Assembly (NCBI GenBank): GCA_964496145.1
Contig: CAZBXR010000002.1
Location: forward strand, 3,146 to 67,145
Length of the DNA stretch: 64,000 nucleotides
Direction: 5' to 3'
DNA from: an uncultured Chthonomonas sp.
Lineage (GTDB): Bacteria; Armatimonadota; Fimbriimonadia; Fimbriimonadales; Fimbriimonadaceae
The notes beneath the pieces are model-generated. The model was not told where the DNA came from, did not search any database, and was given only the letters and a program-made list of their open reading frames with translations. Positions within the stretch are counted from its first letter, which is position 1. Each line of letters starts with the position of its first letter. Made by a program: the position numbers and the translations under genes. Shown here piece by piece: positions 15,920 through 58,497 of this stretch.

Positions 15920-16591
15920 ATGACAATGAACAAATTCTCTGCTCTCGTCGGAATCGTTTTCCTTGCCAGTATCTCCTCGGCTCAAATCGTGCGGTACGAC
16001 AACACGACCACCGCATTCACTGCCGCCGTAGCAAGCAATAATCTGAATGAAGTCTGGGGAGACATGCTCACGCTCTCCGGTCCCGGCCTGCTGAGCAAAC
16101 ACACCTTTGGAATTTGGAATTCTGCGCAAAGCGGGAATACTGGAAACATCGTCGCGGGAACCTTTACGATCAAGTTTTATGACAACACGGTCCCGTTTGT
16201 GTCGGGTCCCATCACGAATCCCCTACTGGGATCTTACACATTACCGGTGAATTTTGGCTCCACTCCGGTGTTGCCAGGGTCATTCCAACTCGTGACGGCC
16301 ACGGGACTCGCCTCGCTCAACATCAATCTCCCCACCAACATCTTGATCACTCAAAGCTTTCAGCAGACCGTTGGATCAAGCATCCGGTATGGGGTGGCGA
16401 GCGGCTCGAATCCCACGACTGGATCAAGCAACAACGCGTTTTTAACAACGCTTAGCCTGAACGGGTTCATCAGCCAGTCGGGAAACTCGGGGAACCTCTA
16501 CTACAAGGTAGAAGTTGTCCCAGAGCCGACTTCGTTGGCGGCTCTAGCACTGGGTGGTTTATGGGTTGCAAGACGAAAGCGGAACCGTTAG
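15920..16591 (+). CDS. PEP-CTERM sorting-domain secreted protein
   Basis: It has a signal peptide and the C-terminus reads [24 protein letters not shown]. Confidence 0.8.
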
Positions 16592-22870: not shown

Positions 22871-23839
22871 TTACCGACGTCGCTTGCGAAGGAACAATCC
22901 AAGGCCGCTGGCCAAGGCGAGCATAGTTCCTGGCTCGGGGGCCACTACAATGTCGAAGTCCAGTGCCGTGGCTGTGGGAGAATTCCCAAGGCTTACGGAA
23001 GGATAGAACGAACGGCTCGCCTCATCCCAAAAGATGAGGTCGTGGTTCGCAGAGGCGCTGGTGTCCCACAAATTCATGTATCCCGTGTGGGTCCATGCGC
23101 CCCCAATGGTGCCGCTCGTAGAGAAGGGGAAAGTCCACGGGGCCGATATCGAAGTTGACCCGACACCCCCTGCGGTGTAGACCCTGCTTGGTCTGCTGAA
23201 CTCATCCTGAGCGATCATCTTGTTCCCGAGGAGATCAAGATTGAAGAATGGAGACCCGGAGGCCGTTGTAAGGGTATCTACCAGCACAGGTGACAACCCC
23301 GAAGAATTCCAGCGATAGAGTCGATTGCCAAGACTGGTGGTGGTGTTTTGAACCAGACCGTAGAAATCGCCATTGGGCGCCTGGACACCGTCGTAAAACG
23401 TCTGGAGTGTTCCGCTTGGAGCGGCGAATGCCCCTATGAACGCCCCGTTCGACGTCCATCGGCCAATCTCGTTTGAACCACCGAACGAGCCGGAAAGGAT
23501 GTAGTTTCCGCTGTTATCGAACGAGATGTTCGTATAATTTGAGGGCGCGGCAAAGTTCACGGAGCGAAGTAGCGAGCCTGTATTGTAATTGAATACCGAA
23601 ATGCGACTTCCTGACGTGGAACTGTAACTCAGTACGTGCGCGGTGCCGTCACTTTGATTGATGGCAAGCTTTCTGGCACCGGTGATTCTTCCCGTTCCAA
23701 ACTTTCCAAGATACGCTGCTGTCTCAACGCCGTATCGGTAGACCTCGGTCGCGGTCAAAACCAGACCCAACTCAAAACTTGCAAAAGATGCTGATGGAAG
23801 CGCCAGCGCAGCCAGCAACACAAGATGTCCTCTTCTCAT
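22871..23839 (-). CDS. PEP-CTERM sorting-domain secreted protein
   Basis: The start was chosen at MRRGHLVLLAALALPSASFA. The C-terminus reads VAPEPGTMLALASGLGLFLRKRRR. Confidence 0.8.
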   Translation of the reverse strand: MRRGHLVLLAALALPSASFASFELGLVLTATEVYRYGVETAAYLGKFGTGRITGARKLAINQSDGTAHVLSYSSTSGSRISVFNYNTGSLLRSVNFAAPSNYTNISFDNSGNYILSGSFGGSNEIGRWTSNGAFIGAFAAPSGTLQTFYDGVQAPNGDFYGLVQNTTTSLGNRLYRWNSSGLSPVLVDTLTTASGSPFFNLDLLGNKMIAQDEFSRPSRVYTAGGVGSTSISAPWTFPFSTSGTIGGAWTHTGYMNLWDTSASANHDLIFWDEASRSFYPSVSLGNSPTATALDFDIVVAPEPGTMLALASGLGLFLRKRRR

Positions 23840-23871
23840 GGCTGTATGATACAGCAACATCCCCGAATTTC

Positions 23872-27718: not shown

Positions 27719-28087
27719 ATGAAACCCATCGTCATTCTCGCAGCGCTGTGCTTCACCGGCGCGACTCTCTCTACGGCTCAGCAGGCTCCGGTCGCAAAAC
27801 AAGACCAGACTTCCTACGAATCGGTTCAACGAATTCTTGACACCTATTGTGTCGGTTGCCACAGCGGGGACCGCGCAAAGGGCGGAATTCGCTTGACGAG
27901 TTACGACGAAGTCATGGATAGTAACGTGATCGTTGAAAAGAACCCAGGAAAGAGCCGTCTCTACAAGGCGGTTACCGGAGCCAAAGGGGTTCGAAAGATG
28001 CCTCCTGGACGGGGACCCTCGCTCAACAAATCACAGCTAAACAAAATCGAAACTTGGATCGCGCAAGGCGCGAAAAACGACGAATGA
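27719..28087 (+). CDS. secreted mono-haem c-type cytochrome domain protein (PSCyt1-like)
   Basis: It has a signal peptide, CVGCHSGDRAKGGIRLTSY and KMPP. Confidence 0.75.
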   Translation: MKPIVILAALCFTGATLSTAQQAPVAKQDQTSYESVQRILDTYCVGCHSGDRAKGGIRLTSYDEVMDSNVIVEKNPGKSRLYKAVTGAKGVRKMPPGRGPSLNKSQLNKIETWIAQGAKNDE

Positions 28088-28515
28088 AGAATCGACTCCT
28101 CCTTCTCTCCATTGCCCTTGTGGGCATCTCTATTCTTGGTTGTGGATCCGGTAGCACCGAAGAAACCACCAAGAAAGAAGAATCAGCCCCCGCGAGTGCT
28201 TCGAAAGAAGCGGCTCCTTCCGCACCTGTGGCGGCGGGATTTGCGGCCGTGCAAGCTGTGCTTACGAAGAATTGTGCAAATTGCCATTCTGGCCCCGACG
28301 CAAAGGAAGGCGTGAAGCTCACGAGCTATGAAGAAGTCATGGCGGGCGGCGAACACGGCCCGATCGTGAAGGCCGGAGACCCCGAGGCAAGCCTGCTCTA
28401 CAAGGTGATCTCAGGAGCGCCCGGAGTCAAAAAAATGCCGCCGAAAGCACCGCTTTCGACGGACGAGATTGCCCTGATCGCCGACTGGATCAAGGCAGGA
28501 GCGGCAAAGAGCTAA
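28084..28515 (+). CDS. lipoprotein with a PSCyt1-like c-type cytochrome domain
   Basis: It has an ATGA overlap with the previous gene, the lipobox ILGCGS, CANCHSGPDAKEGVKLTSY and KMPP. Confidence 0.75.
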   Translation: MKNRLLLLSIALVGISILGCGSGSTEETTKKEESAPASASKEAAPSAPVAAGFAAVQAVLTKNCANCHSGPDAKEGVKLTSYEEVMAGGEHGPIVKAGDPEASLLYKVISGAPGVKKMPPKAPLSTDEIALIADWIKAGAAKS

Positions 28516-30019: not shown

Positions 30020-30739
30020 TTACTTCTTGTTGCGTCGTCGGCTGATGGCGGCAAGACCAAGGCCGATGGCTGCGATGGAAGCAGGTTCTGGAACTGGGCT
30101 ACCGGCGACTTCGACCATGTCGAAGCGGAGAGTTCCTGTGGTTCCGTAAGCTGCACCGGACGAGCTCACATAGGCGCTCGTCGAAGGAGCGAAGATCGTG
30201 GTGACTCGGAACCCGAAGTTTGCGTTGTTGTTCACGCCTGCGATGGCAGAAAGGTCAACTGTTCGGTCGTTGAACCAAGTGTCGCCCGAAGTCGCTTCGA
30301 AAACTCCACCGTTGAGCAAGCCAACGGAAGAGAAATTGGTGCCGTCCGTGGTGTATTCGAATTGAATGAACTTGCTCACCGAGTTGCTGTGTCGGTTGTC
30401 CCATTGCACAATAATGTCTTTTTGACCGAGTGTGGAAACGTTGAATCGAGCGCCTCGTGTTCCCGAGCCTGTGCCTTGAGCTGCCCAAGTGGAAAGGTTC
30501 CAAGCTGCATCGTCTGCCACTTCGGGATCGGTCGAGCCGGTTCCGCTGTTGCCGGAAGCGAATGTTGAGGTCGCGCCACCGAGGAGAGCGGCCGTGCCTG
30601 CGCCAACCTTTGGAGAGAGCGTTCCGGTTCCGGTGTTCGCGTCGCTTGGTTGCGAATTGAAGTCCCAGAGAGTGATGATCGCGGCCTGCGAGGACGCAGC
30701 CATTGCGGCGAGAGCGAGAAGAGACAGGGTTGTTTTCAT
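30020..30739 (-). CDS. PEP-CTERM sorting-domain secreted protein
   Basis: The start was chosen at MKTTLSLLALAAMAASSQA. The C-terminus reads VPEPASIAAIGLGLAAISRRRNKK. Confidence 0.8.
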   Translation of the reverse strand: MKTTLSLLALAAMAASSQAAIITLWDFNSQPSDANTGTGTLSPKVGAGTAALLGGATSTFASGNSGTGSTDPEVADDAAWNLSTWAAQGTGSGTRGARFNVSTLGQKDIIVQWDNRHSNSVSKFIQFEYTTDGTNFSSVGLLNGGVFEATSGDTWFNDRTVDLSAIAGVNNNANFGFRVTTIFAPSTSAYVSSSGAAYGTTGTLRFDMVEVAGSPVPEPASIAAIGLGLAAISRRRNKK

Positions 30740-30860
30740 GGTCGTTTTTCCTTTCGTACCGATCCAATCGATCGGTAAGTCTATTGTTTCGTGGGGATGT
30801 TGAGGCAAGGTTAAGGGCGGGCAGGCTTAGCAGAACCTTAACCCGCCCTCGTTCCTTTGT

Positions 30861-32318
30861 TTAGAGAATCTCGTCCCCAGCCAGGTTGTAGTTGTCGCTG
30901 AGGATGAAGTAGTCGAGCAGATCGACTGAACCGTCCTCGTTGAAGTCGGCGTTGGCATCGAATCCTGCGTCGCCCGTCGAGAGGTTGTAGCTATCGGAGA
31001 GAGCGAAGTAGTCGAGCAAATCGATGCTGTTGTCGCCGTTGGCGTCGCCATTTGGCAAGATCACCGTGGGAAGCGTCACCGACGCTCCGTTGGCAACGAA
31101 CGAGGCACTTGCTTTTTGGAGCCAGTGGCCCGTTCGAACGTAAACCTTGTGCGATCCGCTCACAGCCTTCGTCGTAACCGTGAGATTTCCAGCGAAGTTC
31201 ACGAATCCGTTTGTGGTGTCCACAACGTTTCCGTTCGCATCCACAACGACCGCGGTCAACGTCTTATCGGCGTCGAGATCGAAGTCGCCGAGGTTCACCG
31301 GAACCACGACTTCAGTCGTCGCCGATGGAGATTCGGCGATGCCTCGGAAAATGTAGTTCGTAGGAGCCGTGGCGATGACCGTGCTGCTGCTCAGATCCTC
31401 GGGAACCTTGACGAGAGTGGCGCCGCTGGCGCGCAGGCCGTAGAAGAACCCATCCTTATAGATGAAGTTGTTCATACCGCCCGTGGTGGCACCGGTTCGG
31501 CCTGTTTCCACCCAGACTCCGCTCTGAAGTTCGAAGCGAACGAGACCAAAGGCATTCGTGCTGCTGCTGAGGATGACCTTCGTGGGCGAAAGGAACACAA
31601 AGTCTCGGATCGAACCCGCAAGCCCGATCAACGGATTTGCAAGAACGAGGCTGGTCGGCGTTCCGTTGATTTGGTAGAACGAGTTTCCGAGGGTCTGTCC
31701 GCCAAAGACGTTGTCATCGGAGCTGGTGTAAAAAATATCGGAGCCGTAGAACCCAAGGGCTCGAACGCTCGTTCGGTCGCCGTCCAGCGCGGGGAAGTCA
31801 GTGATTTTCGTCCCCGTTGAACTGCCCCAACTGAAGAGGTCAACGCCGCCCGTGCCAGTTCCTGTGTAGATCGTGTTGCCATCTTTCGAGATTGCGGTGC
31901 GGAAACTATCTCCGTCAGTTTGATCAATCCCGAGCACGCGACCGAAGTCAACCACTCCGCTGGCGGGGATTCGTGCGACCATTCGATCGGAGAAAAGCCC
32001 CGGTTGCCCGACGCCAGGAGCATCGGCATAACCCGCTACCAAGAGGTACCGACCGTCTTGGCTCAGGGTGACTTGGTTCTCCGAGGTCTCGTCGGGTTGA
32101 CCTGTGATTCGCTGACCCGCGGTTGTGAATGGCATGGGGACGTCCACGCCAACCTGGGTTCCCGCGGTGCTGTATTGCCGAAGCGTGATCGGATACGTCG
32201 TGGCGGCCGAGGTGGCGGTCCCGTCGCCCAACATGGTCACGACCAAGTTTCCGGACGAGAAGTTTGCGAAGCTCTGGGCGGTGAGGCCCGCGAGAAGAAG
32301 AGTCGAGAGTTTTTTCAT
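30861..32318 (-). CDS. secreted protein with a C-terminal pair of dockerin-like Ca-binding repeats
   Basis: The start was chosen at MKKLSTLLLAGLTAQSFA. The C-terminus reads GDANGDNSIDLLDYFALSDSYN...DFNEDGSVDLLDYFILSDNYN. Confidence 0.8.
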   Translation of the reverse strand: MKKLSTLLLAGLTAQSFANFSSGNLVVTMLGDGTATSAATTYPITLRQYSTAGTQVGVDVPMPFTTAGQRITGQPDETSENQVTLSQDGRYLLVAGYADAPGVGQPGLFSDRMVARIPASGVVDFGRVLGIDQTDGDSFRTAISKDGNTIYTGTGTGGVDLFSWGSSTGTKITDFPALDGDRTSVRALGFYGSDIFYTSSDDNVFGGQTLGNSFYQINGTPTSLVLANPLIGLAGSIRDFVFLSPTKVILSSSTNAFGLVRFELQSGVWVETGRTGATTGGMNNFIYKDGFFYGLRASGATLVKVPEDLSSSTVIATAPTNYIFRGIAESPSATTEVVVPVNLGDFDLDADKTLTAVVVDANGNVVDTTNGFVNFAGNLTVTTKAVSGSHKVYVRTGHWLQKASASFVANGASVTLPTVILPNGDANGDNSIDLLDYFALSDSYNLSTGDAGFDANADFNEDGSVDLLDYFILSDNYNLAGDEIL

Positions 32319-32349
32319 AGCAATGGTCCTTTCTTTCGTGCGAAATGCG

Positions 32350-33240
32350 TTAGCGGCTGATGCAGGTTCCGTTCGGGGCGAGTTCATCAGAGGCAGAAGT
32401 CCAGCCTCCGCAGTCTCCGGTAGCTCCACCGGCTCCGTCTTCAGGAAGTCGGAAACCCCAATCTGTTGCCTGAGGCTCGGTTCGGCGTCGCTCGGAACTA
32501 AACCGGTACTTCATGTAACCGGCGTGACCGTCGATGTAGACCACGTTTCCGCCGTCGTTATGGGGAAACTGCTTGCCGCGATCTTGGCCGGTGTCGTGGA
32601 GGTTCCGGGCCTGGATCCCGTCCAGCCCCGAGTTCACGGTGAGGAGCTTCCACAGCTCGTCCCCTTCCATATCCGGGTCAATGCCTTCTAGGAACAAATA
32701 GCTTCCGGCGGGGTCTTCCCACGTGGTTGCGCTCGGCCAGTCGTCAGAGATGTGCTCGTTCAACGAGTAATTGGTGTAGTAAAAGTATCGATTTGCGGCG
32801 TCTCGCTGTAGCCCGTGGCTCTCGGCAAAGGTTCGGAACTGGGCAATGGTGCATCCGCCCCGGGTCCAGTTGCCGGCGCCATCGAGAATCTGGAGGCGCT
32901 TGCTCGTGGGGCAAGTATAGATATCGCCCCCGGTCCCCTTGAAATTGTCCGGAGCCTTCTTTTGAAGGTACGGGCGCATGAGGAATGGCCAGTAGTGTTT
33001 GCCCCAGTCTCCGCCGGGAGCCGTACTACATGTGTTTCCGGAGAAGTATTGGTCGTCGTAGTCTCCGAGGTAGAGAACGGACGCGGTGCCAAGCTGCTTC
33101 ATGTTGCTCAAGCAGACGGTCTTTTTGGCCGCGCTTTTCGCTTGGGCAAAGACAGGGAAGAGGATCGCGGCAAGGATTGCGATAATCGCAATCACGACAA
33201 GAAGCTCGATCAGGGTGAATGCTCGTGGAGCGGTCTTCAT
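32350..33240 (-). CDS. prepilin-type N-terminal cleavage/methylation domain protein, H-X9-DG (DUF1559-like)
   Basis: It contains [24 protein letters not shown] and [12 protein letters not shown]. Confidence 0.85.
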
Positions 33241-46129: not shown

Positions 46130-47002
46130 TCAGTCCTTTGGCTCGAGAATCGAGATTTCTAGGCTGTACTTGCCCGTGCTAGGAATCGTCATCGGACCTT
46201 GCTTTGTGACCTCTTGGAAAGGCACATCTTTGCAAGCCAACTTGAGCAGCCGACCCGTTGCCTTCTCGACAAGAACGGTGTACGAGATTGAACGAGTCGA
46301 TGTTTGCTCGAATGACTGATCCACGCCGGCGGCGCCGTCGGCCTTGAAAACGGATTGAATCGTGCCGTTGATTTCAAGCTTGAGAGCATCCCATTTTTGG
46401 AATTTCTCTTCCCCAACGAACTTGACTTCCAAGTTTTCCTTCGCGTAAGGAATGCCCGTGGACTTTTCTTCACGCTCGATCTTCCAAGTGGCCCCTGGCG
46501 CAACCGCCTCGCCCGGGAATCTCAACGATCCCGAAAGATCTCGGAAATAGGTTCGGATCATCCGCTGAATGTTGCTCGGGGAAGATCCAAAGCTCAATGG
46601 GTTCCATTCGCCCAGGCTCGTGACCCTCGCCGTCGCACTCAGGTCACTTGGAAAGCTCGGAGGTACCGGAGGTTCGGGATCAATCGTAATCTTGTTGTCC
46701 GTGACCTTAAGCTCTACCTCGGCGCTCTTTCCATCCGGATCTACCTTCGATGTCGTCAGTGTGCAAACCGACGATTTGTCGCGGGAAATGGTCATATCCT
46801 GTCCGCCGAGCGAAGCCATATCCATGGTGGTGGACGACTTTTCCTTAAAGCTGTACATCGTCTTTTCGCCCACCCGGAAGGTGCGTTGAATAAGTACCTT
46901 TTCAGCTTCTGAAGGTCGAGTAGCGGCCGGCGCAAAATGCAAAACGCCCATCGACGCCATGAGAGTCACGCAAGGAACGAGATAGGTTCTGAGATTTTTC
47001 AT
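46130..47002 (-). CDS. secreted hypothetical protein, tandem paralogue 1 of 3
   Basis: The start was chosen at MKNLRTYLVPCVTLMASMGVLHFAPA. It shares sequence blocks with the next two genes. Confidence 0.75.
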   Translation of the reverse strand: MKNLRTYLVPCVTLMASMGVLHFAPAATRPSEAEKVLIQRTFRVGEKTMYSFKEKSSTTMDMASLGGQDMTISRDKSSVCTLTTSKVDPDGKSAEVELKVTDNKITIDPEPPVPPSFPSDLSATARVTSLGEWNPLSFGSSPSNIQRMIRTYFRDLSGSLRFPGEAVAPGATWKIEREEKSTGIPYAKENLEVKFVGEEKFQKWDALKLEINGTIQSVFKADGAAGVDQSFEQTSTRSISYTVLVEKATGRLLKLACKDVPFQEVTKQGPMTIPSTGKYSLEISILEPKD

Positions 47003-47106
47003 AGTCAAGACTGCCAAGAGGTGGCTCAGCCCACCGGTGTCAAGGGCGGGAGTTGTGACTAAATATTACTGATTGTAATAAAATAGAGTTCCGAAGAACG
47101 CAGCGT

Positions 47107-47144
47107 AAAAAGAAGCACCCCTGAAGCCGTTGGATTCAGAGGTG
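47107..47144 (-). terminator. rho-independent terminator after paralogue 2
   Basis: The minus strand reads CACCTCTGAA-N9-TTCAGGGGTG, a 10-bp stem with one G-U pair, followed by CTTCTTTTT. Confidence 0.65.
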
Positions 47145-47173
47145 TTAAGAGTTCTCGAAAGGGCTGGTTTTCC

Positions 47174-48037
47174 CTAGTTAACGATCGAGATTTCAGTGCT
47201 GTACGAGCCCGTAACAGGGAACTTCGTCGAACTTCTGGTGACGACCATACTCTGTGGCACATCCTTACACTCGAGTCGGAGCAACTGCCCAGTAGCTTTG
47301 TCCACGAGCACAGTCGTAGAGACGGATCGATCCATATCTTGTCGGACAGGATTGCTCGCACCGGTGTCGCCTTCTGCGATGAGTGCAGACTGAATCTTCC
47401 CCTTGAGCTCCAGCCTTAGAGCGTTCCACCGTTGGAACTTCTCCTCCCCGACGAACCGGACGTCGAGGGTCTCCTTGCCATAGGGGCTCGTCGGAGATTC
47501 TTCGTTTCGAACGATCTGCCACGAACTTCCTGGTCGAATGGGTTTTTCCGGGAACGTGAGGCACCCTGTTAGGTCGCGAAACAATGCGCGAACATGATCC
47601 ACGTGGTATGAAGTTTTCGACCTGCATTCAATACTGCTCACTTCGCCTCGAGGCGTGATCTTCGCCGTAGCCGAATACTCTGTCAGGTATCGGGGCGGTT
47701 TCGGAAATTCTGGATTCAGAGAAACCTTATGGTCTTTTACTTCTAGCTTTACATCTGCGCTCGATCCATCGGGGGCCACCTTGACCGTCTCCAGAGAGCA
47801 CACGGATGTATTGGTGATCTCCGTGGTCACGTTCTTTGCCTTCGCAGAACTCATATCAAAGGTAGTCATCGCACTTTCCTTGAAGGTGTAAGTCGCCTTC
47901 TCTCCTACCTGGAAGGTACGACGCATGAGAACTTCGCCATGGCTGGGCGATTCACCATCTGCAGAGGAGAAGTGGAAAACCGCAAACGTGGCGAGTAGGG
48001 TCACACAAGGGATGAGCAAGATTCGATAGTTTTTCAT
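47174..48037 (-). CDS. secreted hypothetical protein, tandem paralogue 2 of 3
   Basis: The start was chosen at MKNYRILLIPCVTLLATFAVFHFSSA. The longer listed ORF would run through the upstream terminator. Confidence 0.75.
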   Translation of the reverse strand: MKNYRILLIPCVTLLATFAVFHFSSADGESPSHGEVLMRRTFQVGEKATYTFKESAMTTFDMSSAKAKNVTTEITNTSVCSLETVKVAPDGSSADVKLEVKDHKVSLNPEFPKPPRYLTEYSATAKITPRGEVSSIECRSKTSYHVDHVRALFRDLTGCLTFPEKPIRPGSSWQIVRNEESPTSPYGKETLDVRFVGEEKFQRWNALRLELKGKIQSALIAEGDTGASNPVRQDMDRSVSTTVLVDKATGQLLRLECKDVPQSMVVTRSSTKFPVTGSYSTEISIVN

Positions 48038-48154
48038 GGGATTCACTATGGAGGCCTCTCCCCGACGCCTTCGCCGGGAGGAGGTTTTCACTTGTAACAA
48101 AATGTAATAGTATTTCGTTCCCCGAAGAGTCACTGTTCCATTGAGGCGGATCTG

Positions 48155-48191
48155 AAAAACAAATCGCCCTGAAGCCAAGGGCTTCAGGGCG
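48155..48191 (-). terminator. rho-independent terminator after paralogue 3
   Basis: CGCCCTGAAGC and GCTTCAGGGCG form a perfect stem. On the minus strand it is followed by ATTTGTTTTT. Confidence 0.8.
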
Positions 48192-48212
48192 ATAGAGAGT
48201 TCTTGAAGGGGC

Positions 48213-49079
48213 TTACTTCGCGAACTCAGCGATGACCATTTCGGTGCTGTAGATTCCGTCCATTGGAATGCTCATTCCGCTCATTTCGGTGCTGATCTTG
48301 AGAGGAACGCTCTTCGCTTCCATCTTCACCAGTCGGCCGGTGGCCTTCTCAATGTAGACGACGGAGTTGACGGTGGCTTCAGAAATCGACTTCATCGGTC
48401 CCATGCCCATGCCGTCTTGAGACTCCGTGGTCATCTTCGAGGTCCCACTCAGTTCGAGCTTGAGGACGTCCATCTTGAACAGCTTCTCTTCGCCAACGAG
48501 CTTGATCTTGATCTTGGTGTCGCCGTCTCCAGCCATCGACTTTCCTGTCTTTTCATAAGACCAGGATTCGCCGATACCGACTTCCTTGTCAGGGAATTCG
48601 AAGATTGAGACCAGCAGCTCAAGTGTGGCTCCCGCCATCGTCTTCATCATGTCGCTGACGCCTTCTGTCTTCGTGTCGGTGACCTTGTTTCGGTCAGAGA
48701 TCTTTCCGGTGAGCGAAAATTCCTTCGGAAACTCAGGCGCTCCGGGCATGGCGGGCTCCATGGTCATCACGTTGTCGGTGATCTTAACCTCGAGGTCGGC
48801 GGATTTCTTATCTTCTGCAACCTTCTTGATGGTCATCGCCGCCTTGAGCGATGTCGTCACCGTCATGGTCATGTTGGGCGCGCCAAATGAACTCAGGTCA
48901 AGGTTTCCGTCATAAACGTTTGTGAACTTGTATTCGGTTTTCTCGCCTTCAACAAAAACTCTCTTGATCGTGAATTTTGTTGCCGCTGGCTTTGTGTCAA
49001 CCGCGGGATCTTGATGGGCGAATGCGAGTGACGAAAGGGTGAGGACGCTCAAAATGAGTCCGGACTTTAAGGCTTTCAT
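48213..49079 (-). CDS. secreted hypothetical protein, tandem paralogue 3 of 3
   Basis: The start was chosen at MKALKSGLILSVLTLSSLAFA. It is the more divergent member of the family. Confidence 0.75.
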   Translation of the reverse strand: MKALKSGLILSVLTLSSLAFAHQDPAVDTKPAATKFTIKRVFVEGEKTEYKFTNVYDGNLDLSSFGAPNMTMTVTTSLKAAMTIKKVAEDKKSADLEVKITDNVMTMEPAMPGAPEFPKEFSLTGKISDRNKVTDTKTEGVSDMMKTMAGATLELLVSIFEFPDKEVGIGESWSYEKTGKSMAGDGDTKIKIKLVGEEKLFKMDVLKLELSGTSKMTTESQDGMGMGPMKSISEATVNSVVYIEKATGRLVKMEAKSVPLKISTEMSGMSIPMDGIYSTEMVIAEFAK

Positions 49080-49234
49080 GAGTGTGAATAATCTCCAAAT
49101 CAGCCATGGCACTCGCATCGCGAGAACCCATGCATAACAAGAGTATAAACGACTGAAATCGTCTCTGTGTTTCACCCCGGACATTCACGGGACCTTTGGC
49201 AAACCAAGATGGCGTAGATGTATCCTGTAATCTA

Positions 49235-53822: not shown

Positions 53823-55292
53823 TCAGTCAAGGTCAAGGGTCGGGGCGGGGAGGGCATCGGGTTCGACTTCTTCTTCGATGTCCAACACATCCTCTGATGT
53901 CTGCACCACGGCGAGCGGGCGAACCACTTGATCGATGTCCTTCGGCTCCTCCAGAGCTTTCTGCTTGTTATACAAGGTCTTGAGCTTCGAGGCGCGCCGA
54001 ACAACACTCTTTTCAAGAGTTCCCACGGAGAGGTTGAAAGCGTTCACGGCAGTTTCTAGATTTCGCCCTAGTTTCGCATAGTGGTCCATGAAAGTGTGAA
54101 TTCCATCGTATAGGTTGCTCCCCAGTTTTGCCACTTCGCGCGCACTCTTGGTGAGATCCTCTTGACGCCAACCGATGGCGACAGCCCGGAGCAGGGCAAT
54201 TAGCGTGACGGGTGTTGCAATAAGCACACCAGACTCGGCGCCAAAGTCAAGTAGTGTCGGGTCCTGCTCCACCGCCGCCGAGAACATGGACTCGAGCGGA
54301 AGAAACATGACGATGAGGTCGGCTGAATCGGCAACAGCCTTGTCGTAGTTCTTTTTGCGCAAAGAAAGTAGGTGATTCTTAACCGTTGCCGCGAACGCCT
54401 TCATTCTTTCCTCTCGTTCCCCGTCGTGGAGGGCTTCGATGCTCTGTGTATAGGCATCCATCGGAGACTTAGCATCGATGATGATGTTCCTGTTGTTGGG
54501 CAGGCGCACGATGACATCGGGCCGAATACGTCCGCTTTCGGTTGGATGCGACTCCTCTGTAACAAAATCGCAACGCTCGACCAAGCCAGCAAATTCCACG
54601 ATCCGCTTGAGTTGTATTTCGCCCCAGGATCCTCGCTGCTTTGGGTTGCGAAGAACGTTCGAGAGCTTTCCTGTTTCAGAGCGCAAAAGTCGCTGATCGT
54701 CGCGGAGTTCGTCAAGCGTGTGCTTGAGGTTTTGGAATGAAGAAACGCGGTCCTTTTCCAGGTTCTCCGTCTTCTTGCCCAGGTCTTGGAGTTGCTCGTG
54801 GATAGGCTTGACAAGACCCTCGATTGCAGCCCGCCGAGCCTCAAGGTCGGTCTTCGATTCTTCTTTGATAGACTTAAAGTTCTCGGACGCCATTTCGAGG
54901 AACGACTTTTGAGACTTCGCCACCGCCTCGGCGGCCATGGCCTCAAAGCTCTTCTTTAGGTTCTCTTCGGCTTGTCGCAGAGTCTCGATCTGCTTTTGAT
55001 GGGACTCTTCATCGCTTTGGATCTTCTGCTGAAGTGCGCTGATTTTGCCCTCTGAGATGCGCCACTCTTCTCGGTACCGACCGGCTTCCGCGAGCTGAGT
55101 TTCGAGCTCTTCCATTCGGGTTGCTCGTTCGGCAGCGGCGGCAAGGCGGATGTTGGCATCACCCAATTGGGTTTGTGATTCCTGCAAAGCAGCTTCACGA
55201 AGCGCCAGTTTCTTGTTCGTGATGGTCCAAACGACGAAGGCAGCAAGGCCAGCGCCAACCACAAAGATGAGAGCTCCAAGAGCAAGGTCCAT
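53823..55292 (-). CDS. rmuC: DNA recombination protein RmuC
   Basis: It has an N-terminal transmembrane segment, a coiled coil and a C-terminal RmuC nuclease-like domain. It is 489 aa long. Confidence 0.85.
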   Translation of the reverse strand: MDLALGALIFVVGAGLAAFVVWTITNKKLALREAALQESQTQLGDANIRLAAAAERATRMEELETQLAEAGRYREEWRISEGKISALQQKIQSDEESHQKQIETLRQAEENLKKSFEAMAAEAVAKSQKSFLEMASENFKSIKEESKTDLEARRAAIEGLVKPIHEQLQDLGKKTENLEKDRVSSFQNLKHTLDELRDDQRLLRSETGKLSNVLRNPKQRGSWGEIQLKRIVEFAGLVERCDFVTEESHPTESGRIRPDVIVRLPNNRNIIIDAKSPMDAYTQSIEALHDGEREERMKAFAATVKNHLLSLRKKNYDKAVADSADLIVMFLPLESMFSAAVEQDPTLLDFGAESGVLIATPVTLIALLRAVAIGWRQEDLTKSAREVAKLGSNLYDGIHTFMDHYAKLGRNLETAVNAFNLSVGTLEKSVVRRASKLKTLYNKQKALEEPKDIDQVVRPLAVVQTSEDVLDIEEEVEPDALPAPTLDLD

Positions 55293-55803: not shown

Positions 55804-56757
55804 ATGAAAAATTTTCAAAAGGCATTTACGCTGATTGAGCTCCTTGTAGTCATCGCGATCATTGCTATCCTTGCTGCGATTCTCTTCCCTGTCTTCAGCC
55901 AGGCGAAGGAAGCCGCCAAAAAGACCCAAGCCATCAGCAACGCCAAGCAAACGGCGACCGCGCTCATTATGTATGCGGGGGATGCGGACGACCTCCTCCC
56001 CTGCGGCCTTGTTCCTAACCTGAGCACGCCGGGCACTATCAGATATCGAGTAAACGATGATACGAATCAGAATCCTGCGGGCTGGTTCAACTTTCCGGGT
56101 GGACAAGATGAGCACGCGCTCATGTGGAACAACACAGCTCAGCCGTACATGAAAAACTATGATTTGCTCAATGCGGCAACTCCAAGTATTCGAATCACTG
56201 GTGCGACCTGGACGCCGGGTTATGCCGCTCAGCTAAAGCAACCTAAGGATGCCCACTTTACGTTCAACGGATTCTTGCACCACTACTCCCTCAGCGCGAT
56301 CGAAGCTCAGTCTACGCTTCCCCTCGTTTGGGAAGGTTGGGGCAAGCTCTCGAAGTTAGGTGCCGCGGCAGCAAATCCTCGGTTGAACTGCAATGCGACT
56401 GGACCTTGCGTTTACAATCCGGCAGGAATGCCACAAACCGGAGCTACAGGCGGAGGAATGTACTCCATTACTTATCCTCACCGAGGGCAAGGAGGGCCGA
56501 AAATGTGGGTCTGGGGCAAGGGCATGATCTTTGTCGGGGCAGATTCATCTGCGCGCATGGTTCAACTCGGCAATGGAAACAAGCAAGCCTTTCCAACGAG
56601 CACGAATACAGTCAACTTCTTCCACTGGATAGATCGAGACGGATATATCTGTGACCCCCTGCAGTTTCCAGAATGCTCGTATTCGATTCGCGGTCGATTC
56701 GTGAATAACATTCTGTTTATCGCGGCATTCTCGCCTGACAATACTTTTGCAAACTAA
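55804..56757 (+). CDS. prepilin-type N-terminal cleavage/methylation domain protein (DUF1559-like, no clear H-X9-DG)
   Basis: It contains [24 protein letters not shown]. Confidence 0.8.
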
Positions 56758-56758
56758 T

Positions 56759-56983
56759 ATGAGAAGAGCTACTTTCGCATTCGTCGTTTTGACCTGCCTC
56801 TTTGTTGTAGGTTGCGGGAACAAGGAAGAGAGTGCGCCTGTGACAGAGGGTAGCGGTACGGCCGCCCCCGCACCGGCACAGCCTGCCGCAGAGGCGCCTC
56901 CGACTCCACAACAGGTGGAGACGGGTTCAGGAAGTTCCGGCCTACGGTCGGTCCCACCTACCCAAGAAGGGGACCGTGGTTAG
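56759..56983 (+). CDS. small Pro/Ala-rich lipoprotein
   Basis: It starts MRRATFAFVVLTCLFVVGCGN, which contains a lipobox. It begins 1 nt after the pseudopilin stop. Confidence 0.55.
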   Translation: MRRATFAFVVLTCLFVVGCGNKEESAPVTEGSGTAAPAPAQPAAEAPPTPQQVETGSGSSGLRSVPPTQEGDRG

Positions 56984-57192
56984 GTCAGTAATAGGCCTCT
57001 TCGGATTACGTTGGGAAACTCGTTGGAGCTTCTTGACCCCACGGAAAGGACATTGAACGAGGAAATCGATGGACGGCACGCTGTATGCCGAATTGAGGGT
57101 CGGGTGGAGTACCGTTGGTGCTTAAAAGGTAGCTTTTTGGCTGATCACCCGACCATAATTGATACGGCGATCAGACGTATCGCAATATTACC

Positions 57193-58431
57193 ATGCAAAA
57201 ATTAAGTCTGTTTATCATCCTTGCTGTTTCGATACCATCCGTTGCGACGGCTAACAATTTCGAGTTTCACGACTGGGGCTCTCTCACCGGCAGAGCTTCA
57301 GAGATGGGGACCAGTTTCAATCCTGCCGCACCTGCCGCAGTGGCCAATTACAATGTAGATCCATCATCGGTATTCGCTCCACCGACTGGAGCCGAGTCGA
57401 TTGGCATTACGGCAAGAGTAAGAGCCAATCCCATGTCCCTACCCGACGTCAACGATCCTTTGCTGTACGCTGGGATCATGTCGATGTCAGGCACGCCGGC
57501 GTTCAAAGTGGATTACATTCACTTGGGCACGACGGGACGGCACGCAATCTCGATTTTTGCGACTGTCACGGCTAGTGTTACTGCAACTCCAAAGCTGATG
57601 GATTGGGTTACCTGGTTTCCCCCTTCGATTACCCCCGCAATAACAGTCGATGTTTATGGTAATTCGGTTCCTGAGTTTGGTATGTCCTCGCTCTACAAGA
57701 GAACTAGTGGCCCCTTTACAGTGAGCGACTCTTCTGAAAAACAGGTTACGGTAAAGGCCATCATGGACATCGTTTCGAACCAGACTCTCGGGTGGTCTCG
57801 AGGATTGGGCTTCTTCGTTCCTCTTGGGAGCGTAACTTGCAGGACATTTCAACAAAAGCATTACCCCGTTGGAGGAATTAACTCCGAGTCAAGCTCCGAG
57901 GCTAGTGTCGGGGTGCAAGCTACTGGCTTTACATACTCCTTGCTTCAAACCAGACCCTGGAGACCCTTTATCCCCGGTACGTCTCACACTTCGGGGCCTG
58001 CAAGGGGATTTTACGCGCGGATCAAGAATTCAAGCGGCGGTCTTTTGGAAGAATTCGCGTACGCCATGATACCTACGGACGAAGGAATCTACTTTGATCC
58101 CCTTGGGGCGTATTCTGGCGACGGGTCTTTGGAGTTAACCTCAAAGGGGATGCTGAGGAAGATCGTCTCTCTATCCATAGTTAACGGCGTCGTCCAACCA
58201 GGGGGTAGCATCCAGTTGCACTTTGGGGACATTAACGAAGATAACGCGGTCGATTTGCTTGACTACTTTGTCTTAAGTGACTACTACGGCTATACTGTTG
58301 ATGACGATGAGTATTACTATCTTAATGCAGACGGGAAGTGGGGATATCACGCCGACCTGAACCTGGATAACTCAGTGGACCTACTGGACTACATGATCAT
58401 ATCCGACAACTATAATTTAGTTGGTGATTGA
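57193..58431 (+). CDS. secreted protein with a C-terminal pair of dockerin-like Ca-binding repeats
   Basis: It has a signal peptide. The C-terminus reads GDINEDNAVDLLDYFVLSDYYG...DLNLDNSVDLLDYMIISDNYN. Confidence 0.8.
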   Translation: MQKLSLFIILAVSIPSVATANNFEFHDWGSLTGRASEMGTSFNPAAPAAVANYNVDPSSVFAPPTGAESIGITARVRANPMSLPDVNDPLLYAGIMSMSGTPAFKVDYIHLGTTGRHAISIFATVTASVTATPKLMDWVTWFPPSITPAITVDVYGNSVPEFGMSSLYKRTSGPFTVSDSSEKQVTVKAIMDIVSNQTLGWSRGLGFFVPLGSVTCRTFQQKHYPVGGINSESSSEASVGVQATGFTYSLLQTRPWRPFIPGTSHTSGPARGFYARIKNSSGGLLEEFAYAMIPTDEGIYFDPLGAYSGDGSLELTSKGMLRKIVSLSIVNGVVQPGGSIQLHFGDINEDNAVDLLDYFVLSDYYGYTVDDDEYYYLNADGKWGYHADLNLDNSVDLLDYMIISDNYNLVGD

Positions 58432-58460
58432 CGGCACGTTGATTGCTCGCGAAAATCCGA

Positions 58461-58497
58461 AAAAGGTCACTCTCTTAGGAGAGTGACCTTTTTGTTT
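58461..58497. terminator. bidirectional rho-independent terminator
   Basis: AAAAAGGTCACTCTC-TTAG-GAGAGTGACCTTTTT lies between the convergent dockerin-tail gene and motB. Confidence 0.85.

Follow-up and report, generated by a model that had tools for sequence, protein, structure and literature searches.

The window analysed here is a 64-kb stretch of DNA from an uncultured Chthonomonas sp. of the Armatimonadota, and it contains two cassettes in which a gene for a type IV pilin-class protein adjoins a gene for a secreted protein with a dockerin-like C-terminal tail. A six-frame motif scan of the 64 kb found exactly two prepilin N-termini and exactly two dockerin tails, which are paired with each other; we estimate the chance of such a pairing at roughly 0.002, given about 65 genes. 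Cassette 1 has the following features.

32350–33240, minus strand: pilin-like protein A, 296 amino acids (aa); class III (prepilin) signal, long N-terminal helix and H-X9-DG head
30861–32318, minus strand: protein A open reading frame (ORF), 485 aa; start MKKLSTLL, ends in two dockerin-like loops
31327–32318, minus strand: protein A residues 1–330; Sec signal peptide (MKKLSTLLLAGLTAQSFA), then beta-propeller passenger
30861–31319, minus strand: protein A residues 334–485 and stop codon; beta-sandwich X-module and duplicated Ca-loop dockerin (XDoc dyad)
30020–30742, minus strand: PEP-CTERM protein, 240 aa; 118–121 nucleotides (nt) beyond the protein A gene

Cassette 2 lies at 55804–58431 and is followed by a hairpin.

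55804–56757, plus strand: pilin-like protein B, 317 aa
56759–56983, plus strand: small lipoprotein ORF; lipobox VVGC and Pro/Ala-rich linker
57193–58431, plus strand: protein B, 412 aa; signal peptide, passenger, partial X-module and dockerin with a long linker (tail from about 58108)
58460–58493, plus strand: terminator-like hairpin with a 15-bp stem, directly 3′ of the protein B gene

Much of this had been read from the letters alone in the original prediction. Its layout of cassette 1 (a pilin-like gene, a 31-nt gap to the gene of a 485-aa dockerin-tailed protein, then a PEP-CTERM gene) agrees with our coordinates and with curated models. A second pairing at the position of cassette 2, with an unrelated passenger, is likewise confirmed: proteins A and B are alike only over their last ∼107 aa (41% identity), and the tail hidden Markov model built in this analysis scores protein B at E 7.6e-22. 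Its description of the first pilin-like protein as DUF1559-type holds in part. Pilin-like A scores 15.7 bits against DUF1559 (PF07596), under the gathering cut-off of 23.3; pilin-like B has neither a DUF1559 match nor an H-X9-DG motif; and TIGR04294 reports neither protein at E ≤ 0.1. Pilin-like A does carry the H-X9-DG motif near the C-terminus of its head (read from the sequence), and its relatives at 43–56% identity carry PF07596. Those that are 51–56% identical, in Fimbriimonadia, are named H-X9-DG/DUF1559, and one member of its 90%-identity cluster is labelled an H-X9-DG protein by JGI. The family yields more than 8,000 hits.

By their N-terminal signal both pilin-like proteins belong to the type IV pilin class: A and B reach 30.3 and 35.7 bits against N_methyl PF07963 (cut-off 21.2), and 31.4 and 31.9 bits against TIGR02532 (cut-off 16.3). 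The signal of pilin-like A has A at −1, F1 and E5, and its profile aligns with solved pilins and GspG over residues 2–69. The AlphaFold2 (AF2) model of pilin-like A, with a predicted local distance difference test score (pLDDT) of 91.3, has a helix at 10–60. Despite this confident model, the head has no solved structural relative in the PDB, and structure therefore offers no functional clue. Pilin-like B resembles A only over the N-terminal 63 aa (73% identity); when its head was compared with the A family and with the pilin of another locus, L015, homology was rejected in both cases.

The start chosen for protein A is backed by P0001, a homolog that is likewise 485 aa long. In the AF2 model of protein A (pLDDT 81.9), a beta-propeller at 25–330 is followed by a beta-sandwich at 334–420 and a two-helix dockerin at 424–485; the propeller resembles the LRP6 YWTD, TolB and lactonase propellers (Foldseek). 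The 240-aa neighbour is a PEP-CTERM protein by PF07589 (26.9 bits, cut-off 20.7) and TIGR02595 (24.5 bits, cut-off 16), and it ends in a PEP motif, a transmembrane helix and a basic tail (VPEPASIAAIGLGLAAISRRRNKK). We considered its gene as a conserved third member of the cassette and rejected it, as nothing but the sorting motif matches in related loci. Three independent sister-strain metagenome contigs (L028, L029 and L030) stop 30–40 nt short of the protein A stop codon, at window 30891–30901, which may reflect variation between strains or a fork in the assembly graph where the protein A and PEP-CTERM genes meet.

The lipoprotein ORF of cassette 2 begins 2 nt past the pilin B stop codon and has no Pfam match. 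It is kept at 52% aa identity in a syntenic strain locus, L013, with a conserved C-terminal peptide (GSSGLRSVPP.QEGDR), and it may be a third component of the cassette. The genes of each cassette are closely spaced, with gaps of 31 nt in pair A and 2 nt between pilin B and lipoprotein, and no terminator-like site was found between cassette genes.

Pilin head and passenger are inherited, rearranged and exchanged as a unit. In five genomes with differing neighbourhoods, the two genes of pair A (pilin-like A and protein A) are adjacent and share a strand; in one of the five their order is inverted. The loci below are given with their identities to the window, pilin head before passenger.

L008, JGI metagenome contig: 50% and 44%; adjoins ATP synthase genes
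L021, metagenome-assembled genome (MAG) of Fimbriimonadaceae: 36% and 35%; pilin then passenger
L022, ‘Chthonomonas sp. UBA2391’: 36% and 35%; then an unrelated PEP-CTERM gene
L026, ENA metagenome scaffold: 46% and 36%; inverted order, with the pilin gene 122 nt downstream of the passenger gene; next to rpsB-tsf

The named relatives are MAGs of Fimbriimonadia, Fimbriimonadaceae or Fimbriimonadales, all Armatimonadota. All five pair A orthologs keep the dockerin tail, and its motif varies by genome (LLDYF, SILDYI, VTVFDYG and ITIFDYI). More distant relatives of pilin-like A, in L027, L023 and L025, precede genes for dockerin-less phytase-like beta-propellers (PF02333, E 1.4e-56). At L027 the phytase-like gene is followed by that of a different propeller-XDoc protein, and at L023 a homolog of the latter comes next, where the contig ends ahead of any tail. 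Taken over all these genomes, the dockerin motifs also include TIGDY. A comparison by hhalign rejected homology of passenger A to the phytase-like partner (probability 0.3%).

Pair B was compared between the window and the sister-strain locus L013. The backbone DNA of the two is 95–100% identical, and MotA, MotB and MutL show 100% aa identity with a synonymous divergence (dS) of 0.10–0.20. Within cassette 2, codons 1–65 of pilin B still have a dS of 0.02, and from there a diverged block begins.

56000–58450, no strand assigned: strain-variable block comprising pilin B head, lipoprotein, passenger B and tail; dS saturated, against 0.02–0.2 in the flanking backbone

One junction of the block lies at the end of the invariant N-terminal coding segment of the pilin, and similarity resumes directly past the hairpin at 58460–58493. 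The pilin B head is 85% identical in aa sequence with a dS of about 2 (2.05), passenger B only 35% in the codon alignment (31% by tblastn) with no DNA similarity, and the protein B tail 68% with saturated dS. Since the diverged block spans head, lipoprotein and exoprotein, these were replaced together. Diversifying selection on the head was considered and rejected, as its ratio of nonsynonymous to synonymous divergence (dN/dS) is about 0.05; the signal is that of an old, imported allele. Cassette 1 is 96% identical throughout in the same sister strain.

A second, separate allelic replacement lies about 500 bp from cassette 2: the RmuC gene at window 53823–55292 (minus strand) is 68.5% identical in aa sequence to the sister-strain copy, with a dS of about 2, and its flanking genes are 94–100% identical.

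A dockerin is defined by two segments of ∼22 residues, in each of which a Ca-binding loop of 12 residues (D/N at 1, 3, 5, 9 and 12) precedes a helix. The tail has both segments. The loops of protein A are DANGDNSIDLLD and DFNEDGSVDLLD, those of protein B DINEDNAVDLLD and DLNLDNSVDLLD; as read from the sequence, none of the four has lost a Ca ligand at position 1, 3, 5, 9 or 12, and the AF2 helices of protein A lie at 434–442 and 467–475. The earlier description of both tails as dockerin-like is borne out. Protein A passes Dockerin_1 PF00404 at 23.5 bits (cut-off 22.9) and matches a known XDoc fold; protein B, at 15.4 bits, stays under the cut-off. The tail profile matches seven solved dockerins (E 1.7e-6 to 1e-4), and the C-terminal ∼160 residues of protein A match the type II XDoc of 4wi0_B/4u3s_B with a TM score of 0.67 and a root mean square deviation (rmsd) of 3.8 Å, as well as 3kcp and 4fl4 (Foldseek). 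By profile and by structure alike, the tail is an XDoc dyad.

This tail is a generic module carried by thousands of otherwise unrelated exoproteins of the lineage. An exhaustive profile search found the dyad in 3,630 protein clusters (50% identity, E ≤ 1e-10) with very diverse passengers, and most of the top 150 profile matches hold the full 133-position profile at the extreme C-terminus of proteins of 130–1,350 aa. Homolog searches recovered it at 53–78% identity on S8 peptidases, BNR/sialidase-like and trypsin-like proteins and many unknowns. The tails are 75–85% identical as protein and just 50–75% as DNA; we therefore reject gene conversion among them. Conservation of the protein above its DNA indicates strong purifying selection, as expected if the tails bind one common partner. 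Two further cases set the tail beside PEP-CTERM: P0032 is a homolog of passenger A that ends in PEP-CTERM in place of the dockerin tail, and a PEP-CTERM protein at L022 (8424–9674) has its N-terminus in common with the dockerin-tailed P0018. This suggests that PEP-CTERM and XDoc tails are interchangeable surface-retention devices.

The explanation that we consider best, with a probability of roughly 0.5, is that the cassettes are operons of a pilin head and its cognate exoprotein, and that XDoc is an independent surface-docking tag. Each cassette would be a small operon that encodes a type IV pilin-class protein, in which the N-terminal assembly helix is invariant and the globular head specific to the cassette, together with the cognate Sec-secreted exoprotein. 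We infer that the head physically binds the passenger domain of its neighbour. In this way the partner could be delivered to a type II secretion system (T2SS) or a type IV pilus-like fibre, or be displayed there, in loose analogy to minor pilins and the PilY1 propeller. Independently of this, the XDoc tail would attach the protein, once released, to a single cohesin-type receptor that such tails share and that is encoded elsewhere, in the manner of an alternative to anchoring by PEP-CTERM.

Several observations weigh against this explanation. Block inheritance of pair B could reflect a single recombination tract. No pilin gene neighbours P0003, a homolog of protein A at 34% identity; at L015 the pilin gene is adjacent to the tail gene P0039 but convergent to it; and the pilin-A relative at L024 precedes an unrelated gene. 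In addition, no gene for a cohesin, secretin, pilus ATPase (GspE/PilB), platform protein or prepilin peptidase (peptidase A24) was found among the window proteins scanned, so that the pilus/T2SS machinery and the receptor are both assumed.

The absence of assembly machinery among those proteins would also fit co-location without interaction, in which pilin-like, XDoc and PEP-CTERM genes simply cluster and share their regulation or transfer, with the pilin-like proteins having their role elsewhere. PEP-CTERM and other XDoc genes do cluster around these loci, and the PEP-CTERM neighbour of cassette 1 is not conserved. We nevertheless regard this alternative as unlikely, since a specific head subfamily keeps a specific passenger family through five neighbourhoods and one inversion, unlike what loose clustering would give.

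The original prediction saw the tail itself as the link, an address tag that docks cargo on the pseudopilin or pseudopilus, so that tail and pilin form one display system. The contexts covered here, from 12 exact-protein context look-ups, span seven loci outside the window with nine tail genes between them; a scan of GTDB species genomes with the tail alignment gave 11 pattern matches, none confirmed, and one of JGI metagenome contigs gave a single short locus. There is some association. Both tail genes of the window adjoin both of its pilin genes, P0002 also has an adjacent pilin gene, and each prepilin N-terminus found in roughly 190 kb of tail-centred sequence adjoins a tail gene. In independent tail-centred loci, pilin genes take 2 of the 14 slots adjacent to a tail gene, and none of the 84 other genes is a pilin gene (Fisher p about 0.02, our own count). 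Together with the recurrence of pair A in five genomes and the exchange of pair B as a block, this upholds the predicted genetic link between the pilin-like gene and the adjacent exoprotein gene.

Association with the tail as such is another matter: pilin genes are enriched beside tail genes, yet the tail is usually unlinked to pilin. Seven of the nine outside tail genes have no pilin gene within 6–8 kb. They include those at the P0004 and P0006 loci as well as P0009 and P0020, both on a 1.4-Mb contig that also bears the exact RpoA sequence of the window and a copy of pilin-like A from the same 90%-identity cluster. The other three lie at L010 (6536–11214), where consecutive same-strand genes encode a trypsin-like protein, then P0003, then a P0016-like protein, all XDoc-tailed and with no pilin nearby; tail genes thus also cluster together.

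All five pair A orthologs retain the tail, as an address tag would demand, but their tail motif differs from one to the next, and in the window the same LLDYF-type tail accompanies two unrelated pilin heads. The two window tails are about 60% identical; the heads of A, B and the L015 pilin are mutually unrelated. With unrelated heads beside the same tail, tail-less phytase-like partners and most tail genes lacking a pilin neighbour, we find a tag for the pilin improbable, and the spread of the tail over about 3,600 clusters and its exchange for PEP-CTERM point the same way. The C-terminal profile that had been proposed as a check did serve to count the family, and most of the tail genes sampled outside the window stood apart from pilin genes. 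A generic anchor, named at the outset as the outcome that would speak against the idea, is largely what the tail turned out to be.

A true type IV pilus tip adhesin module, with the pilin-like protein as minor pilin and the propeller as a PilY1-type tip adhesin, is very unlikely: a pilin gene does adjoin that of a Ca-binding, beta-propeller secreted protein, and E5 and the N-terminal helix are conserved, but each cassette has a single pilin gene and no fimU-pilVWX-like set, no cassette protein has a Pfam or NCBIfam match to the PilY1/PilC family, passenger B has no sequence similarity to the protein A propeller, and no pilus machinery was found in the window.

If the explanation by cognate heads and an independent XDoc tag is extended beyond these loci, DUF1559/H-X9-DG pilins in general might serve a single pilus/T2SS-like machine as adaptors for specific cargo or as its tip subunits, with heads that recognise the adjacent exoproteins and, in Armatimonadota, with cargo tethered by XDoc to a cohesin scaffold. 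We put this forward tentatively and think it rather doubtful.

What is new here is the pairing, not the tail, and all parts are of known kinds. In the searchable literature we found no report of a conserved pairing of DUF1559-type pilin and exoprotein, nor of an XDoc tail family in Armatimonadota. DUF1559/H-X9-DG pilin-like proteins number hundreds per genome in several phyla, and we know of none with an assigned function. A partner gene that is specific to the head and linked to it across divergent genomes provides a concrete pair for tests of binding, secretion and localisation, and could open up the whole family. The high conservation of XDoc across thousands of exoproteins in Armatimonadota leads us to predict a cohesin-type surface scaffold, as yet undiscovered, beyond cellulosomes. 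Adaptor heads combined with an XDoc tether, if true, would amount to pilin-coupled secretion or surface display in a non-cellulolytic, Gram-negative-type lineage.

The rest of the window carries housekeeping genes (rpmJ-rpsM-rpsK-rpoA, ilv genes, a Bat/MoxR/VWA operon, motAB and mutL) and two further PEP-CTERM genes.

15920–16591, plus strand: PEP-CTERM gene
22871–23860, minus strand: PEP-CTERM gene, APEP variant; 18 bits, under the cut-off

The protein encoded at 22871–23860 has a propeller-like passenger similar to that of a PEP-CTERM protein of L021. Upstream of cassette 1, two adjoining genes for small Planctomycete-type cytochromes c (PSCyt1) lie at 27719–28515 on the plus strand. At 46130–49184, on the minus strand, three tandem paralogous secreted proteins of 295, 334 and 323 aa have the motifs VGEK..Y.F and VGEEKF in common; none of the three has a Pfam match.

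Among known systems, the tail is closest to the type II XDoc of cellulosomal scaffoldins (Acetivibrio cellulolyticus ScaA, 4wi0/4u3s; Clostridium thermocellum CipA, 2b59/3kcp/4fl4), in which a beta-sandwich likewise leads directly into a duplicated F-hand dockerin that binds Ca and ends the protein. The structural match extends over 160 columns (TM 0.67, rmsd 3.8 Å) and is accompanied by a profile match. The window host, however, is a Gram-negative-type Armatimonadota without cellulosome context, and no cohesin was found among the window proteins scanned. Passengers of the window-type tail range over proteases, sialidase-like proteins, propellers and unknowns, and the tail has a distinctive invariant DLLDYF-LSD-YN helix.

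PEP-CTERM/exosortase signals resemble XDoc in being C-terminal tags on secreted proteins of the same genomes, where homologous passengers bear either one. They differ in kind: PEP-CTERM, a transmembrane sorting peptide, is cleaved off by exosortase, whereas XDoc is a folded protein–protein docking module. Pilin-like A resembles the DUF1559/H-X9-DG families (PF07596, TIGR04294) in its prepilin N-terminus, in its H-X9-DG motif and in belonging to a very large family, and JGI and NCBI label its relatives accordingly, although it stays under the Pfam threshold and pilin-like B falls outside the family. Paralogous families of this kind occur in Planctomycetota, Verrucomicrobiota, Lentisphaerota and Armatimonadota. 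The type IVa minor pilins and their PilY1 tip complex offer an analogy only. There too, a pilin-class gene adjoins the gene of a secreted beta-propeller protein with a Ca site, but the combination of PilY1/PilC propeller and minor pilin gene set that marks this complex is not found here; the cassettes have instead a single pilin gene, a different propeller with no homology to PilY1, and an additional XDoc tail.

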